Below, in pieces: positions 31,496-41,430 of a DNA stretch of 64,000 nucleotides. The notes below the pieces were generated by a model that was not told the DNA's origin, made no database searches, and saw only the letters and a program-made list of their open reading frames with translations. Source of the stretch: Pseudovirgaria hyperparasitica (taxonomy: Eukaryota); NCBI GenBank assembly GCA_010093815.1, contig ML996583.1; one strand, written 5' to 3'. Each line of letters opens with the position of its first letter. Positions within the stretch are counted from its first letter, which is position 1. The position numbers were made by a program, and so were the translations under genes.

Positions 31496-32499
31496 CTAAG
31501 CCTCTGACTCAAAAGCAGTGGGGAAGCGCCTCATGTTGGACTCAAGGTTACCCTTGTTCCTCAGGAACTGAACGTATGCACCATCGACCTTGACACGACC
31601 CGCCTTGCGCTCCTCGACATATTGGTCACGGTTGAGCTTGGTGAAACCCCATTTCTTGGAAACGATAATCTTCTGGCGACCGGGGAACTTGTACTGGCAG
31701 CGACGGAGAGCCTCGAGAGCGGTGGCACGATTGGTATCCTTGGTGCGGACGGACAGGAGAATCTGGCCAATGTTGACACGGGCGACACTGCCGTTGGGCT
31801 TGCCCCAGGCACCACGCATTCCGGTTTGGAGTCTATCGGCTCCGGCGCACGACAACATCTTGTTGATTCGGACAACGTGGAACGGGTGGGCGCGGACACG
31901 CATGTGAAAGTTGTCCTTTCCGGCGATCTTGACGAGGTACCTTCAAGCATTCTGTTAGTCATGCTGTACCTCAAAATTCCATGATGACGTCGGCCATTCT
32001 TTGGGCACTCTCTATGCCGTCTTTAAATATTTCTTGTTCTGTGCTTTTGCCACATGTCATCCATAGCCGCATTTCTCTTTATTTTCCAGAATGGTTCCCT
32101 TATGTAGGTTCGGGTATGAAACTCACTTGTTGGCGCAAATACGAGCGGCTTCAAGAGCTTCGGAGCTCAACTGTTCGTATTCGTTGGAGACGAGGTGGAT
32201 GCAGAGGGGAAATTCATCGACGTTCGCACGCTTGCGACCAAGATCAAAGATGCGAATCTTCGGGTCAGGTACACCACGGTTGAACCGCGACTTTGGGTAC
32301 GGCTGCAGTCACAGATTATTAGCCTTTGATTCTGAGGTTGTCACTGAAGATGATCGTGAATCTTCGTCCTGGCGTGTCCATCCGAAGGGCTACCTCTTGC
32401 CGGCGCGGTGTCCAATCGACCTCAAGCAGCTTCAGGTTGTAGATAGGTGCCTACCTTGTTCTTGCAGTAACGGTAACATCTTGCAGGGCGACGGGCCAT
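31496..32499 (-). CDS. RPL10: 60S ribosomal protein L10 (uL16). Exons 32499-32455, 32302-32127, 31940-31496
   Basis: [39 protein letters not shown]...[24 protein letters not shown]. Confidence 0.97.
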
Positions 32500-32902
32500 T
32501 TTGTCGGTATTGATGGCGGTCGTGAGGTGGTGGAATGACGAGGACGAAACAGAGGAGCAATGGTGGGCTTTTTGGACGTTCATTGAATTTCTAAGCACAC
32601 TCGCTTAGCGAGCCGAATCGGGCAGCGGGGGCGTAACTGTCCGAACGAGCTCGCTTACTGTTTGGCGAGCAAGATATGGAAGAAAGAGAACGCCGCCGTC
32701 TCACATCGAAAGGCATATGTCATCATGAAGAATCGAGAGTCATAGCATAGAGTAGTTTCTTGAGTCACAAACCGTGTGGCGGTTTTTCATTGGTATCTAC
32801 ATTGGCCTACACAAATGACATTCCATGCGCCCGATTGATATGCCCCGGATTTTGAGCGCCGAGCGTCGAGCGCTTCGTACGCTGGCCTTTTCCTATTCAC
32901 AT

Positions 32903-33545
32903 CTATGCCTGACCAGCGCTGAGAATATCAGAGTCACCAGCGTCAATGATGGCCATAGTTCCGCAACGGAAGAGTTTACCACACGCAGTTCCGAGTTCGA
33001 TACTGTAAGCACAGTTATGTCAGCCGTTTGATACCCTCCAAAGTCACAAGACTCTTTCTCAGGGTATGCCCTCCCGAGACGTGCGCGCCTGTTCTCAGGG
33101 CTATAAAGACCATAAGGTGTTGGATATGCTTACTTGTTGCCAGAGAAGTGGTGGACATTGGTCTTGGACAGCTACAAAGGATTACTACTACGTCCATTCA
33201 ACTATTGCGATTTGAATCGTACCATGCTGTAGTATTCCAATTCTGACTTCCTCAAAGGAGGGCAGTTGCCAGCAATGATTACAAGCTTGGCCTTTCCTGA
33301 GCGGAGCCTTCTCGCTGTCAGTCTCAAATCTTGTTCATCGCGCGATAGGTGCTTCGACTAATTCGAGTGCGGAGTTCGGTAGACGTACGACTTGAGGGTA
33401 CTCTTGTAGCCAAGAGTGACTGTGACAGATTAGGAGACGTTCAAGATTTGAAGGTCGCGATGACCATACCTTTACCAGACTTCATCACCAGAGCCAGACG
33501 GCTGTTGATGGAGTCGGCGGACTTCTTGCTCTTCTTGATTGCCAT
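32903..33545 (-). CDS. RPL30: 60S ribosomal protein L30 (eL30), 109 aa. Exons 33545-33470, 33419-33389, 33307-33223, 33171-33134, 33002-32903; not in the ORF track
   Basis: Spliced translation: [109 protein letters not shown]. All four introns are GT-AG. Confidence 0.97.
33031..33101 (-). promoter_or_regulatory. Two tandem kink-turn hairpins in RPL30 intron 4 (33101-33068 and 33067-33031)
   Basis: GCCC-UGA-GA-A-C-AGGCG-cgca-CGUCU-c-G-G-GA-GGGC and AUACCC-UGA-GA-A-AGAGUC-uugu-GACUUU-G-GA-GGGUAU. Each has a canonical stem, a 3-nt bulge, tandem G.A/A.G pairs and a second stem. Confidence 0.85.
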
Positions 33546-33608
33546 CTCTGCGTGTTCAGAATTTGTAAATGAAAGTTCTGAAGGGTTTAACTGATTATAC
33601 GCTCCGGT
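33542..33608 (-). promoter_or_regulatory. L30-binding kink-turn spanning the RPL30 5' UTR and start codon
   Basis: ACCGGAGCGU (33608-33599) pairs with ACGCAGAGAUGG (33553-33542). This nearly matches the S. cerevisiae RPL30 autoregulatory site ACCGGAGUGU...ACGCAGAGAUGG. Confidence 0.88.
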
Positions 33609-34036
33609 GCAGGATCAGAAGTTCACGGTATAGTTTTGAAGATGTAAATTGGTGTTGTGTGGGATCTTAGCGGACTTGGCATGCACTAGTGCGAAAGGCT
33701 TGGATGATTCAGGCATCAAGGCACGCACGACTCTGGAAAATGTAAGCCATCGTCCTAGCGACTAAGTTCTTCTTTACTGACTCATCCAGAGTATGGCCAT
33801 CAGCGCAATCAGTTGTAAGATTTCGTACATTCCCCAAATGAAAAGAGTTGATTAATATTTATCTTTTCTCGTGGCAGTCGAGATGCAGATTGTATATTCG
33901 TGAAACGCCTGGTGAGATGCAACCGTAATCCCTCAAAGATGCAAGACCGCAAGACCGCCCTGTACCCATACACCTCGCTAATTGACATAATTCCATAAAC
34001 GACAAACCATACGCCCAGCCAGACTTGGCGTCAGTA

Positions 34037-37000
34037 TCAGCCGCCGCCGTTATCACTCTCTATCCTTTCTGCTGTGTCAAATCTTGCAATCTTAGGCCTC
34101 CGCGTCGTGAGTCTTGGCTCTGGACTGCTATCCTCTCCTGCTTCGCGTTTTGCTTTTTCCATGACCTCCATCGTGATATCACGAGCTTGCCGTTCGATCG
34201 TCTTGTCTTGAACAGCCTCACTAGGATGCGCTAGGTACGTCTCGATTAGAGCCTTGAGTGTTTGTGCTCTGTTCAAAGTTTAGCTCGTGTTCAATGAGAT
34301 CAGATTCACGTGCACGCGTGATAGAACATCAGGGTATGTGACTTTTGGGGGATGACACAGTAAACGGCGTATCCGAGTACAGTGTAATACACAAAGTGAC
34401 AGGAAGGACTCACCGGACAGGCTTTGCCAGGTAATTATTCATTCCTGCTTCAAGACATTTTTCTCGGTCACCTTGTATGGCAGAAGCAGTCATCGCGATA
34501 ATCAATACATTCTTCACAACCGGGTCCGGGTGTCGGCGAATATCGCGAGTAGCGTCGTAGCCATCCTTGACGGGCATTTGGCAGTCCATAAGGACTAGGT
34601 GGAACGGTTTTCCCTCCCGACTTGCTCGTTCCAAAGCCTCGATGGTCTTGCTCCCATCTACGAATGCTTCGCATTGGAAGCCAAGCTTAGCCACAAATGA
34701 GATGGCGATGCGTTGGTTGATTAGGTTGTCCTCTGCTATGCAGATGCGTAGTTGATCTCGAGGGATCGTGGACAGATCAATTATACCGGGCGCCTGTTGA
34801 CCCTCCTGAGCAGTTGGTGTAGAGAACTTAGCCATAGGATTCACGTCTCGTCCCCTCGCTTCCGTCTCTGTCTCTGTCACCTTTTTGAAGGTTATAGCGA
34901 ATGAGACAGTCGTGCCTACACCTGGAGTAGAGTCCAGCCAGATTTTGCCATCCATAACGCTTACAATCGCTTTACAAATCGATAACCCAAGGCCGGTCCC
35001 TCCATATCCTCGCGAGCTTGAACTCTCAATCTGGCTGAATGGTAAAAAGAGCTTATTTTTCTGGTCCTTCGAGATACCGATGCCAGTATCGGCGACACTG
35101 CAAGTAATGTCCACGGTGTCGTTTGTTTCGGAGATCACAGAGGCGGAAACTGTTACTGCTCCCTCCGTAGTGAATTTGTAGGCGTTCGACAGTAGGTTCA
35201 TTAGCACTTGGTGTAGGCGTATGCCGTCTGCTAGCACGAAAATGTCTTTCAGACGATCATCTAATAGTACCCTTGTTTTCAAGCCACGCTCTTCATTGGT
35301 ATATGATAAAGCCCTTACAACCTCGGTAATGGTCTCCGTAAGATTTAAAGAAGTCACAATCATATTCATTTTGCCAGCTTCAAGCTTGCTGAAGTCCAGG
35401 AGGTCGTTGATGATGGACAAGAGAAGATCAGCACAAGTTCGGATGCTGTCAGCATATGAGTTCTGCTCGGTCGTCATTTGGCTAGCCTTTAACAGCTCCG
35501 ACATGCCAATGACGCCGTTCAATGGTGTCCTTAGTTCATGTGAGACGTTGGCCAGAAATAGTGATTTTGCACGTGCAGCCTCTTCTTTCAACTGCACGTT
35601 TCGAATTGCTATAGCTTCGGCGATTTTGGCCTTGTTTTCCGACTCGCGAGCTTGCGCAAGTGCTTGTTTTTGCATGTCCAACATGGCAACGTTGCTCGCA
35701 CTGACCCGCTCTATACGCTTGAACATCAATGCGTTTGCCAAGGAGATACCGATTTGGTTAACAAGAAGTCCAAGAACCGTAACATTACGCTCTGTAAAGG
35801 AGTTTGGTGGTCCCTCGCAGTATAAACTCCCAAGTAAGACGTTATTGCCATGAAGTATTGGCATGCATATAACGGCCTTGCCTTCAGGATTGCGACGCAG
35901 GTATGCTTCCGGCACATTCGAAAACCTTTCATCCTCTATGATATTGGGCACAAAGACGATCTCCTTGAAGCGAAGTGAGTAGAGAGTGACCTGGCGAGCG
36001 ATTTGATCATCGACGGATTGGAGCGGTTGTCCTTTGGGAAACGTCGTAACTCCGTCAGGGGTACCAACGGTGGCTACAGTCCATTCGGTTTGGTCTTCGA
36101 CCACGATTGCAGAAACATCAGCTGTCGTTGATTCTAGTATAATTTCGGTCATCTTAGATAGTAACTTGTCCTCTTTCAGCTCAGATGATAGGACCTGGCT
36201 GGCTTCTAAAATTCCTTGAAGGTCTATCACATCGAGGCCTGATGCAGAGAGTGTAGCGTTATTAGACATGACCGGTAGGGAAGCTTCTGCTTTCCTTCCA
36301 TTAGGATACTGAGGAGACAACCATGCAGTTGTACGGTCGGCGGACGTCTCTAAGCCTAGTTTGTTATTCTCCTGAGCTTCATTCTGGCTCAAGCGAAATT
36401 CCGTATTATTCGTGTCGATTATGGTGGTCTGGCATTCTGCATCAGCTGTACTCAGGCTCGAATAGCCCTGCAGTAGCCACTCGTATTGGTCTTTTAGTTG
36501 TGTGCACTTGCCTAATGCAGATATTCTGCGATAGGATGATATAGCTTCCACCATCATGCGTTTGGCAGGTCTTTTGGCTCCTTGACGGATGAGAGAACCA
36601 GCGTAGAGTTCGAATGCAAGGCCTTCATCCAAGGTGAAATTGTTCAGTTCAGCGTCGTCGAGGGCTGCTTCATAGCTTCTCATCGCCTCTGAGACCTGAC
36701 CAGAGACATCGGCTATCTCGGCAGATAGCAAGGCTAGCCATAGTCGATAGTTTATGTCGTTGAATAACGTTGACGAGCGAATTCTCTCGTAGTAGCCGCG
36801 AATCTTGGTGAGTAGAGTGCCGCGCATGCTGCTCATGCCTTCGCTACTGACATGCGTCTCACCATTCTCCGCCCTCCGTCGTAAGAGGCCGATGTAGCTT
36901 AGACTCAGGAAGAAGAGATTGGAGTATGTATATCTCATGCAGAACAGACTCTCCATCGTCGTGAGAAGTCTCTCCCCGGTCGCAATAGCCTCTTCAAAGT

Positions 37001-40000
37001 GACCGTAACGGTATTGCGCCTCTAGAAGATATGATAGATATAGAGTGCGCGGTCGTCTCGGGTTGGAGGACCTAAGATCAATCTCCTGGAGATATGTGGT
37101 GGAGTCGTGATTATCGTCATTCAAGACACCGTCAGCTGAAGACGTACGCGTTTTCCCTTGCATTGCCTTGCAGAATTGCGCTGTAGATATTAGCAATACG
37201 CCGCCCCTTAAATCATGCTGCCAGTTTTTGTACTCTGCGGGAGCTTCTTGGGTATACGCTTCGACCTCTGCTAGGTCATCGGAGGCTTGCAGACGAAAGG
37301 AACTGACTATGCCTCTGTTGAGTAACGACATGATCCGGTCTCCCGCCTGCACAGAAGCTTCGTTTGCTTCATTCAATGAAGGTATCTGATGTCTGATGTG
37401 GGTCTCTAAGTGGCCAATGAAGAGTGGATACAGAGTCCCAAAACGGCCTAAAGTGTATGCACCACACGATTCCTCGGCACCGAAGCGGTCGAGGAATCGC
37501 CGGGCAATTGCAGCGATATCTATGCCTAATTTGCTATTGCTGAACCTGCCGATGACGATACTGGACCAGTGCAGATAGCCCAGAGCCAATTGCGGCACTG
37601 TGCCTCGATTCAGCTGGAGTTTGACCATCTCAAGCGTCATCTGATAGAACAGTAGTGAGTTACTCCAGAACGCTGCACTGAGGAGTTCAACCAGAACAGG
37701 ACCAATGGTCTCTAATGTCCGATCTTTCGTCAACGGTCGATCAGCAAGCGCTGTTCCACCTTCCTGTTGCATGACGACCGCGCAGAGCGCCTGTTGCTCG
37801 GAATCTATCTTTTCCCATGATGCGTCGTGTACCGTAAGTCCCAGGTCTGATAAACACGTCTTCAAAGCCATCCAAGCGTTGTGACTGTCACCTTGGATCG
37901 CCCAGATTCGCGATTGTAGGATCCAAGAAGGCGCTTTATCTACGGCATCTTTCGCCTTGTTGAAAGTCGTTTGTAATAGGCCCAGGGCAGGCTCGAAGAG
38001 ACCTTGGAACCAATAGCACTCCGCAGTACGGGTGAAAAGTCTCAAAGTCTCCTGGTAGTTGACATCCTTGCTGGCTTGGTGTTTGGCGCCGATCTTAGAC
38101 CCCTGAACGAGAGTCGATGCGTCCCAAGGCGCGGTTGGCAGTCCAGATTCAGATACTTGTGAGTCGATAGATTCGTCCCACGGGTCATCTTGTAGCAGTT
38201 GCAAGCAGTTGCTATAGTAGAATAACGCTGTCTCGCGAGCTCCTGTTTCGCACGCATGTTCCGCCGCTTGGTATAAAACATCGCGAAAGGCTGCACGTTC
38301 AGGAAGTCGACTCTTGATCAGGTCGGCGGCTAGACAGATATGTCTGCTGCGAACATACAAAGACTTGCTTCCTACCACAGTATTGTCCTGGCTGCCATGT
38401 TTTATCATTGTCTGGGCGATCAGGAAATGCATCTCAGCAGCGCTGTAGTCATCGGCCAAAGCCATGGCTGCCTGCAGATAGCGGTCATGACTGAACCTGA
38501 AGCGATCCTCGGTGTCTCCAGTCGTGATGATATATACTGCCAGGGCTCCTTCAAGTCCAGCGACAGCATCTTTGGATGACACGATGGGCATCGGTGATGC
38601 TTCAAGGCAAGTGTACGTCCCGCTCATTAGATCTTTGATAAGACTGAAGGAAAATGACGTCCCTATCATGGACGCCCACGCTAAGAGCGACTGCGTTTCC
38701 GGTGCTAGTGCTCGGAATTTTTTAGTGATGAAGTCATTGTTAATTTGTTCGCCATATGACTGAGATTCAAATTCGGAAAAGATCTTGTCGATGTCGTACT
38801 CCCAGAGTGAATCCTTCCAATTGTAGTATATGCAATTCTTTCGCTGGCAGGTATCGAGAACCTCACGTATCAGAAATGGATTGCCGCGAGTCTTCTCCTG
38901 AATCACCGCTGCCAATGGTAGTATGTACTCTCTGTCTCTATGAAGGGTTGCTTCCACGTAGTCTAGCGTTTCTTCTTCGGCGAAGGGCTTTAGCTCAATG
39001 TACGTAGATCGAGGTAATAGAGCGCGGATCCATTCGGGTAGCATGTCTTCGGCTCTGAATGTCATTATTAGGAGAATGGGGATTTTACTGGATATAATAT
39101 TGCGGATAAGATCTAAGCTCTCGGAGTCCGCAAATTGTAAGTCATCAACTGAGCAGGCTATGAAACTTTCTGTGGCCAAGAGGCGAAGTACGTCGAGGAA
39201 AGTATTCTTGAACCGCAATGACTTGTTGGATCCACCGGATCGCAACCAATCGGCCGCCGTGTTTCCTGATGAACCAGCAGCTGTACTTTGCAGGGCAGGA
39301 GAAGAAGCTCTTCTCGACACATCAGCTGGGGGAGACTTCTGCCGAGAGCTGTTCGTGTGATCTCCAGAATCCAGAAGCCATGCAGGTAGGTCAAGGTACG
39401 CATGAAGAGAGCCCCAGACAGGATAAACTGTATTACGGATCATGCTATGAAACTCGGTGGAGACGTCGCTTTCGGAAAAGATTTGACGGAAGATTGAAGA
39501 CATAAGCCGCAGAACGGGATCGAAAGGAGTTCGTTTTGCTTGATCGAATTTTGTTGAGGCGAAATAGCCATGCGAACGAGCGTGTACCTGAACACTCTGA
39601 ACCAGACACGACTTGCCAAGCCCAGCCGTGCCATTGATGGCTATGATCTCACAATGACCTTTGCGCCGCAGGCGTTGAACTTTCCTTAAGAGTATTGATG
39701 GGCTTTCGTTGCTACCGCTGTGGAGTGAATTTGACCTCATGATTGACGACGAATTGATACTAGCACTAGCGGCTCGTCCGTGGTCAGACGAAATCCTAGG
39801 AGCCGGCAAAGGTTTAACATCGGACATGTCCTCATTGCTCGAAGCGTTAGCAACCGTCCTTGGGCTGACGAGCCCCAGAGTCGCGGCATTTGCGTGTGCA
39901 GGATCAACGCCACTTCCATTTCTGCTGTCCTGTCGTCCCTCAGAGCTTCCGCTTTCTGAAAAGGCGTCATCCGCGTGGCTGGATTCCATTCTAGGATCAT

Positions 40001-41430
40001 TTGATGACGTAGAGCTCATGGTGTTTACTCCACTGCGGAGCGCGTGAGGCTGATGCTGCCGCTTGGCAATGCGGTCTATCGTGTCAATTATTTTCTGCCG
40101 CTCATCTCGGCGACCGATTTGACCTGTCGGCAAGCTGAAGAAAGAAGACACATCCTTTGCGGCGATCTTGAAATTTGCGAGCCCGGCGGTGTCGCCCTCT
40201 GTGAGTAGGTTCTGGATTTTGATTAGGTCATGCTTCAACCCCGTTGTAGAATGATATCTATCGTCAATCTTGCGTTGTGTCATTTTCTGGATGACCGCGG
40301 ACAAGGCCTCAGGCACCTCAAGTCGTTTCGAAGTCAAAGGAGGGAGACGCGAACTCAGCAGAGCCTGCATTACGTTCAGCGGAGTCTGGCCGCTGAATGC
40401 ATTCTCGCCGGTCAAAATCGTAAAGAACAGAATTCCCAAGCTATAGATATCGGTGCGGACTGTGAGAGTGGCGTTAGTCTTTGCAAAAGATTCAATACGA
40501 AGCAGTACTCACGGTCAGGCTCGGCGGGTAAGCGGCCCGTCTGCTCAGGTGCGATAAACTGCAACTTGTGTTCTATACCAACCTCTCGACTGAGCGAAGA
40601 CCATCCGGAGAAACTCGTCAAGCCCTGTTCGAAACTCCGAGCACCTGAGCCAAAATTGATCATCTTCACTCGGCCGGTGTCTCGGTTCAGATGGAACGCA
40701 TCGCCTCTAAGCTCCCCGTGTACAAGTCCGTTTTGGTGGTGAAGAACTTCGCAACATGTAGCAGCGCCTATAGCGAAATGTAGAAAGGATTGAAGGGATA
40801 TCTCCTTGCCTTTCTTTGACTCGATGCTCTTGAATTCCCACGAATCTGCTTTTTGCACACCTCTATATGCGTTTGGTCCGAATTCGACAAGCTCACGTAG
40901 ATAATTAGGCCCGGGTGCTTCTGAAATTGAGACAACCAGGGCTACCTGTCCAGCGCGCGGCTGTAGGCGAATGAATTCCAAAGGCCGAATGAAGTGGTGG
41001 CATTCTGGATCGGACCTTTTGACAACAGCTTTACACACGGTAAATTCTCTTTCTAATCTCAATTTGTGACTGGAGACTCGTGCCACCACTGGTACTGCCT
41101 CTTCGCTCGGTTTACTGTTATTGATTGGTATGGTAGATTCGCCATTCAAAAATCGTGCTTGTGTATGGGCCCCAATAGTACCGGACATGGAGCTCTTATG
41201 CTGCACCCTAGTTTCGACATTCTTCCGATGAGCCTCAGGTATACGTCTACCAAAGAAATGCCAGTTGTCGTAGCTCTGTGAAGCATTAGCTGCTTGTTGA
41301 CCACATTTGACGCGGGCGATCTTCGTACAGAATGGAATGGTTCTTTCTCAGTATCCCAGGTGTAGCCAGGAATCTCCGACAGCCTCTGAAAGATCTGGGA
41401 GATCCATGTTCCACGGCCTTCACTTGCCAT
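34037..41430 (-). CDS. Group X hybrid histidine kinase (S/T kinase-like, AAA, GAF, HisKA, HATPase, REC; Chk1/Mak2-3/PhkA/HHK1-like). Exons 41430-41329, 41275-40513, 40459-34414, 34268-34037
   Basis: Kinase-like APEQTGR...RTDIYSLG, P-loop GTAGLGKS, DDLQFAD, GNPF, GAF region, H-box FLANVSHELRTPLNG, NLLSNAYKFT, GGTGLGL, receiver AEDN...MDCQMP...LAKP. Confidence 0.94.

Follow-up and report, generated by a model that had tools for sequence, protein, structure and literature searches.

A conserved kink-turn over the start codon of RPL30 in Pseudovirgaria hyperparasitica: a yeast-type candidate operator for eL30 without an adjacent intron

The RPL30 gene is the classic case of ribosomal-protein autoregulation in eukaryotes, and it has been studied almost only in Saccharomyces cerevisiae. 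Yeast L30 binds to a kink-turn (K-turn) in its own pre-mRNA and also in the mature mRNA. Both splicing and translation are controlled, the former via inhibition of U2 binding (PMC3706390, PMC8047918), and the main effect documented in yeast is the one on splicing (PMC8047918). A standard K-turn is built from a Watson-Crick C helix, a three-nucleotide bulge, tandem sheared G.A and A.G pairs and an NC helix; this consensus is common to the ligands of all proteins of the L7Ae family, and in the K-turn of the yeast L30e pre-mRNA, solved as 1T0K, the pair 3b.3n is U.G (review by Lilley, PMC5061560).

In Pezizomycotina, Li and Breaker (2017; BMC Genomics 18:785, PMC5640933) described an "rpl30 motif", with 47 examples from 26 species. 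It is a large hairpin with a conserved purine-rich internal loop, located mostly in the 5' UTRs of L30 genes, and was proposed as a site of L30 autoregulation. In its passages on the motif the paper reports no experiments, and it cites yeast "L32" as a precedent without saying that protein and element are the same. In the literature searched, the name "rpl30 motif" occurs only in that article. The searches for eL30 kink-turn autoregulation in fungal introns and for an L30 kink-turn in Aspergillus returned nothing relevant; Gao, Jones and Rivas 2021 (PMC8216456) contains no mention of RPL30, L30 or K-turn, and the searches found no eL30-binding or expression experiment for any copy from a filamentous fungus, including the one discussed here.

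We here deal with RPL30 in a stretch of 64,000 nucleotides of contig ML996583.1 of P. hyperparasitica (assembly GCA_010093815.1), which as a whole is called the window. The 5' motif has already been published as a candidate; the value of the present analysis lies in the link to the yeast element, in the support by covariation and in the intronic partner sites.

The RPL30 gene and the K-turn over its start codon

RPL30 of the window is interrupted by four introns (Table 1). Contigs of the runs X2 and X3 are spliced, and the two runs that yielded the introns stem from an organism that is at least 99% identical to the window. Searches with the exon 3 frame led to eL30 proteins from Pezizomycotina that contain PF01248, the closest named one being that of Arachnomyces sp. 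The protein is well conserved, as is seen from the match of P0003 to the yeast L30 chains 1t0k_B and 1ck2_A (E 4e-40).

Table 1. Features of RPL30 and of its K-turn elements, in window positions
Feature	Position	Strand	Basis or remark
RPL30 (eL30) gene, start to stop codon, five exons	32903..33545	-	exon translations and spliced contigs
RPL30 introns	33469-33420, 33388-33308, 33222-33172, 33133-33003	-	GT..AG joints, contigs of two runs
NC-stem 5' strand CCG	33605..33607	-	partner is UGG 33544-33542; identical in all 28 aligned loci
G2n and A1n of the tandem sheared G.A (non-bulged strand)	33603..33604	-	invariant alignment columns
C-stem 5' strand GCGU	33599..33602	-	partner is ACGC 33553-33550
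Unpaired stretch of 16 nt, 5' side, AUAAUCAGUUAAACCC	33583..33598	-	TATAAT-like run and A/C-rich AAUCA-type motif
Inner hairpin, 7-bp stem UUCAGAA/UUCUGAA, 14-nt loop	33555..33582	-	strands 33582-33576 with 33561-33555
C-stem 3' strand ACGC	33550..33553	-	sequence
Three-nucleotide K-turn bulge AGA	33547..33549	-	sequence
G1b and A2b of the tandem G.A pairs	33545..33546	-	A33545 is the A of the start codon; columns invariant
NC-stem 3' strand UGG	33542..33544	-	U and G of the AUG and first base of codon 2
Intron 4 K-turn-like site A, GCCC-UGA-GA ... G-GA-GGGC	33068..33101	-	NC stem poor in the window
Intron 4 K-turn hairpin B, AUACCC-UGA-GA-A-AGAGUC-UUGU-GACUUU-G-GA-GGGUAU	33031..33067	-	canonical form
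Branch-point-like CUGAC of intron 4	33019..33023	-	starts 11 nt after the GGG of K-turn B

A sequence-only reading of this region had proposed that CCG-GA-GCGU (33607-33599) and ACGC-AGA-GA-UGG (33553-33542) form a K-turn that encloses the AUG, and the sequence bears this out. As in the standard definition, there are a Watson-Crick C-stem of 4 bp, a bulge of 3 nt, the tandem G.A/A.G pairs and an NC stem, here consisting of U.G, G-C and G-C; the pair 3b.3n is U33544.G33605. The AUG (33545-33543) lies inside the K-turn, its A being part of the second G.A pair and its U and G being part of the NC stem. The limits had been set at 33542..33608. The element itself is as claimed, but its outer end is not, 33608 being one extra A beyond the CCG. 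The NC stem of the window comprises only 3 bp because A33608 faces C33541; in several relatives a G before the CCG adds a fourth NC pair with C. The inner hairpin is separated from the 3' strand of the C-stem by a single base (C).

It had also been stated that the AUG runs straight into GCA AUC AAG, with the first intron at a distance. This is correct: according to the spliced contigs intron 1 occupies 33469-33420, and exon 1 measures 76 nt from the A of the AUG.

The neighbourhood may be mentioned briefly. RPL10 (uL16; 31496-32499, minus strand) lies downstream of RPL30 on the same strand; its start at 32499 is separated from the RPL30 stop codon by about 400 nt. In L028, one of the metagenomic relatives described below, an ATG reading MARRPARC at about base 1691 is found on the same strand as the RPL30 K-turn (501-569) of this locus; the tandem order RPL30-RPL10 is therefore conserved in at least one relative. 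On the other side of RPL30 a large hybrid histidine kinase (34037-40508, minus strand) has an open frame of more than 2000 amino acids with HATPase and receiver regions. A short intron apparently separates this frame from a last exon that terminates near 34037, and the 3' end of the kinase gene is directed towards the RPL30 promoter. X3 contig 11 extends down to 33832.

Relatives, covariation and chance

JGI metagenome contigs were scanned with an alignment of ten eL30 proteins of Pezizomycotina. Confirmation reduced the 590 pattern matches to 395, and the 80 best of these form the set used here. In 34 of these eL30-encoding loci (best 80 of 395) the element is present at the RPL30 start with E <= 1.4e-5, once in each. 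A covariance model derived from the alignment A2, described below, gave 36 matches at E <= 1 in 345,799 bases, i.e., in the best 80 of 395 loci plus the window. All 36 sit at RPL30 5' ends, again one per locus. The only one that goes beyond the set with E <= 1.4e-5 in this search (E <= 1, 345,799 bases) is a weak match in L021, also at the 5' end of RPL30. L001, which is not part of the seed alignment, was found by the model at E 1.4e-5.

The K-turn could, of course, be functional in a way other than translational repression by eL30. It might bind another protein of the L7Ae family, such as Snu13, Nhp2, eL8 or eS12, or have a nuclear role in stability, export or the splicing of intron 1. The standard consensus, being common to all L7Ae-family ligands (PMC5061560), would allow for this, and the effect primarily documented in yeast is indeed on splicing (PMC8047918). 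Every match in the 345,799 bases (best 80 of 395 loci plus the window), however, sits at an RPL30 start; the U.G pair at 3b.3n and the purine-rich bulge are common with the yeast site that was solved with L30e, and intron 1 has its 5' splice site outside the structure, at a distance of 76 nt. We therefore regard such other functions as unlikely.

The loci were scanned with a descriptor and, separately, with two anchors only (CCGGA and the next ATGG downstream), and in both scans the element appears over the RPL30 start codon of many loci. The anchors alone yield 34 distinct loci; of these, 28 carry a G at position 1b and form C-stem pairs 1 to 3, and L003, L009, L015, L021, L036 and L050 do not.

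The element occurs in two types of genes. In the yeast type the AUG is directly followed by an intron (GUCAGU, GUAUGG, GUGAGU or GUCCGU; pattern GU(C/A/G)NGU). The anchor-only scan contains 11 such loci (L017, L018, L029, L032, L034, L035, L040, L042, L047, L048 and L049), with L035 duplicating L034 and L048 duplicating L047. Several of them read CCG-GA-GUGU ... ACGC-AGA-GA-UGG, and their bulged strand is thus identical to that of the window; these loci presumably represent S. cerevisiae itself. In the filamentous type the frame continues (MAPKK...), as it does in the window; this set comprises L002, L004, L005, L007/L008, L013, L016, L022, L028, L031, L038, L051, L054-L059, L064 and L069. L026 and L063 are yeast-like in sequence and have no intron after the AUG. 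The bulge is AGA in 10 of the 11 yeast-type sequences (with adjacent intron or intronless; listed as AGA/AGC/CGA variants) and AAC in most loci of the Pezizomycotina type. The same element, with compensatory changes in its C-stem, thus covers the AUG of both gene types, and the earlier view of a yeast-type L30 K-turn over the start codon without an adjacent intron is upheld. Several Pezizomycotina-like loci lack the 5' element (L006, L041/L044, L043/L046), which must therefore be dispensable in some lineages.

A peculiar form is seen in marine contigs. L036/L037 (near base 2203) and L050 (near base 1727) encode eL30 at 63-67% identity, and at their start codon they read CCGGAGGGGGC ... GCCCGAGAUGG, which resembles a K-turn but has a G.G mismatch in its C-stem. 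By its sequence this form may be a divergent relative of the element that stands outside the yeast-type and filamentous-type groups. Because of the mismatch the three loci were not counted as members; L021/L020 were not counted either, since they lack G1b.

The alignment A2 was made with MAFFT from 28 sequences that had been picked by the descriptor, which demands pairing at C1-C3 of the C-stem. None of the 28 deviates in the three NC pairs or at the four G/A positions, and the register over the AUG is the same throughout. The NC pairs say nothing for the structure, since they never vary and are also fixed by the AUG and codon 2. The information comes from the C-stem. Pair 2 is CG in 16 sequences, UA in 6, UG in 5 and AU in 1; pair 3 is GC in 24 and AU in 3; pair 4 is CG in 14, UA in 6 and UG in 1, and is unpaired in 4. 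Changes on both sides, i.e., compensatory ones, are thus found at three of the four C-stem pairs. In this descriptor-picked set 97.9% of 192 cells are paired, as against 17-39% when the partner is slid by 1-3 columns. Cells changed on both sides number 16, compared with 5.3 +/- 1.8 in shuffles, and none of 500 shuffles reaches 16. A model-based alignment agrees (30 distinct rows, 98.0% paired, 17 cells changed on both sides), and RNAalifold, unaided, predicts 6 of the 7 pairs.

These data leave little room for the idea that the 5' strand is a promoter motif at the DNA level (CCGGAG...) or a chance match, with no RNA structure at all. CCGGAG is invariant and, on its own, could therefore be a protein-binding site in DNA. 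Generic K-turn descriptors, moreover, are common: there are 26 other plus-strand matches in the loci (best 80 of 395). Yet the compensatory changes at three C-stem positions, together with the collapse of pairing when the partner is slid, largely refute the idea. When the 120 nt upstream were shuffled 20000 times, the 3' strand being given, a compatible 5' strand appeared only 73 times. In a leave-one-out search, a covariance model made from the 27 other loci, free of the window, found 33537-33610 (minus strand) as its sole match on both strands of the 64-kb window (32 bits, E 7.3e-7). Finally, the cDNA-like contig L001 contains the 5' strand. A mere DNA motif or a coincidence is thus highly improbable; on the evidence of sequence comparison the start-codon element is a genuine, evolutionarily conserved K-turn and not a product of chance.

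Thermodynamics alone give no signal. The fold of 81 nt with flanks has a z of -0.06, and its minimum free energy (MFE) structure is a different one; for the 67 nt in isolation, the predicted fold (-6.5 kcal/mol) is precisely the one proposed. The kinked three-dimensional conformation is neither favoured nor excluded by nearest-neighbour folding. The helix that prevails in the 81-nt MFE structure, AUCCUGC (33615-33609) with GCAG-GAU, was considered as an alternative and rejected, as the relatives show no enrichment of it (1 of 17 below 0.05 against shuffles). Rfam contains no family matching 32300-34100 at E <= 10.

Intron 4, the linker and the reach of the transcript

Further K-turns are found in intron 4, the host intron being the one between VHHFSGNN and IELGTACG. 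A hairpin of the form CCC-NNN-GA-N-stem ... stem-N-GA-GGG is present in 23 of the 24 intron-4 sequences examined (16 of 17 distinct ones), the carriers including the window, L007, L016, L022, L028, L031, L038, L041, L051-L059, L064, L068 and L069; L013 has no K-turn hairpin in intron 4. Both stems of the hairpin covary (CUC/GAG, UCU/GGA; GAAGC/GCUUU, GAGGU/ACUUC, CAGAC/GUCUG, UGGCU/AGCCA). A branch-point-like YTRAY follows 3-13 nt after the last K-turn hairpin in 15 of 16 distinct introns, and two hairpins in tandem occur in six distinct loci. When intron 4 is retained, a stop codon is soon met. No description of an intronic K-turn at a branch point was found in the literature searched.

The sequence-only reading had assigned three sites to each transcript, two of them in a cassette in intron 4. 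The K-turn hairpins are there, and B is strongly conserved and adjoins the branch point. The count has to be corrected to two solid sites and a weak one, because the NC stem of site A is poor; this site fails a descriptor that asks for 4 of 5 NC pairs. A well-formed copy of this first site is seen in L016, L028, L041, L052, L055 and L068.

The linker between the two strands of the start-codon K-turn differs between the gene types. In 17 of 17 filamentous-type linkers (the window and 16 others) a hairpin of 4-8 bp is predicted at 0-7 nt from the 3' strand of the C-stem, the sequences being unrelated; in yeast-type linkers it is predicted in 0 of 10. An A/C-rich motif of the (C)AAUCA type recurs just after the 5' strand of the C-stem in L002, L004, L005, L007, L016, L028 and L069. 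Its version in the window (33583-33598, minus strand) reads UAUAAUCA and resembles a TATA box. The motif may be an RNA contact, an initiator or a product of chance.

How far the transcript reaches in the 5' direction is of relevance to the model. X2 contig 9 stems from organism B, which is at least 99% identical to the window. It contains the spliced exons 1-3, joined to an uninterrupted cover of 33470-33741; both strands of the K-turn are thus contained in RNA-derived sequence. The same contig skips 48 bases, 33742-33789, with GT..AG on the plus strand, within the spacer that separates RPL30 from the histidine kinase. This joint implies that a spliced transcript, either antisense or divergent, exists upstream of RPL30, and, because it is crossed by the same contig, part of the X2 cover may be antisense RNA.

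A relative adds to the picture. The first 390 bases of L001 are a fully spliced, cDNA-like RPL30 message, which begins at GGAGCUC inside the 5' strand and has a compensating GAGC on the 3' strand, before AAC-GA-UGG. L001 as a whole is an assembly chimera, its bases 390-1079 being an internal fragment of an aldehyde-dehydrogenase-like reading frame.

X3 contig 10 (407 nt) ends at 33561 with 3 unaligned letters, and 33562-33831 is without X3 cover. A 92-nt contig of run X1, whose source is a related organism, ends 15 letters upstream of 33552. Its 15 loose letters start with CGC and contain AUAAUCA, as does the window just after its 5' strand; from these letters we would guess that the start of the contig falls within a short-linker version of the 5' strand. 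The ends of the X3 and X1 contigs might be read as a transcription start some 19 nt upstream of the AUG; this reading was rejected, since contigs cannot show a start and missing cover is no evidence.

It could still be argued that the K-turn is real, but that the major RPL30 mRNA of this fungus starts downstream of the 5' strand. The K-turn would then form only in a minor, longer isoform or never, and feedback would proceed via the K-turns of intron 4 alone. A suitable origin would be, e.g., the TATAAT-like run that directly follows the 5' strand (33599-33594, minus strand). The shortness of the NC stem, which lacks the fourth pair of several relatives, fits with this idea, and so do those Pezizomycotina-like loci that have lost the 5' element and kept the intronic K-turns (L041/L044). 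The TATAAT-like run of the window, however, aligns with UAUCAAU of L016, which is not a TATA sequence. Also, both strands of the element are intact: the C-stem has four Watson-Crick pairs, among them a U-A that differs on both sides from the commonest C-G, which is not expected if pairing had become irrelevant. In addition, an RNA-derived contig covers the whole element, and transcripts of relatives reach into the 5' strand (L001). A downstream start of the major mRNA is thus rather improbable. The 160 nt upstream of 17 loci contain only C/A-rich tracts and no shared TATA box, and upstream conservation therefore does not place the transcription start.

Autoregulation by eL30 and comparison with known systems

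The element is probably a conserved K-turn operator, orthologous to the S. cerevisiae site, for translational autorepression by free eL30, although we hold this view with some reserve. It is built on the sequence, structure, conservation, covariation and gene structure observed, from which we infer that eL30 binds, that translation is repressed and where transcription starts. Free eL30 in excess of the demand of ribosome assembly would bind to the 5' K-turn. Since the AUG and a base of codon 2 are within the K-turn and the 5' strand is probably close to the cap, the bound protein would block 43S loading or AUG recognition and thereby reduce translation of its own mRNA. Because no intron abuts the AUG, masking of a 5' splice site, the yeast mode of action, is impossible at this site. 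Feedback at the level of splicing would more plausibly make use of the K-turn hairpin or hairpins of intron 4 that adjoin the branch point, where a bound protein would be placed to hinder U2 recruitment.

A broader proposal is more tentative: RPL30 of filamentous ascomycetes might be a two-level, multi-site feedback circuit of eL30 in a single pre-mRNA. At the first level a cap-proximal K-turn clamping the AUG would exert translational control. At the second, U2 recruitment would be blocked by one or two hairpins of intron 4, which precede the branch point by 3-13 nt, and the intron-retaining RNA would be delivered to nonsense-mediated decay. The K-turn at the AUG would be ancestral to the yeast operator, and the coupling to splicing would have arisen only where an intron abuts the AUG.

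In S. cerevisiae the control of splicing and that of translation are entangled in one site; the arrangement in filamentous fungi would separate them. A K-turn on an AUG without a nearby intron, combined with K-turns beside a branch point, would allow the feedback on translation and that on splicing to be tested independently. The arrangement also suggests how the circuit evolved across Ascomycota.

The closest known counterpart is the RPL30 site of S. cerevisiae, in the old nomenclature L32. Its K-turn brings together the beginning of the transcript and the region of the start codon, as is predicted for the window, and the two sites share the 2+5 purine-rich internal loop, CCG-GA, NNN-GA-UGG and the U.G pair at 3b.3n. 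They differ in gene structure. In yeast-type genes an intron comes right after the AUG (AUG|GUCAGU and similar), and binding of L30 therefore blocks splicing as well as translation, whereas in the window the frame continues and intron 1 begins 76 nt downstream.

Outside Saccharomycotina, eL30 represses the splicing of RPL30 transcripts in Schizosaccharomyces pombe, where rpl30-1 and rpl30-2 cross-regulate each other (Lemieux et al. 2011, as cited in PMC4695336). This precedent is relevant to the K-turns of intron 4, although in S. pombe, as described in the citing article, the regulation acts between paralogues. In archaea, the mRNA of L7Ae has a K-turn in its 5' leader, to which the protein binds, repressing its own translation (PMC5539422, PMC6298567). 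The working model, autorepression by an L7Ae-family protein through a leader K-turn, is the same as that for the window; the protein, the domain of life and the Shine-Dalgarno-type initiation described in these articles are different, and the analogy is one of mechanism only.

There remains the rpl30 motif of Pezizomycotina (PMC5640933). Its verbal description, on which the comparison is based, fits the element of the window and 17 sequences of the Pezizomycotina type. The extra inner hairpin in the linker, which distinguishes the window and 16 Pezizomycotina-type loci from the yeast type, would account for the "large hairpin" shape of the published motif. As far as sequence and description can be matched, the element of the window corresponds to this motif: its kind is known, the instance is new.
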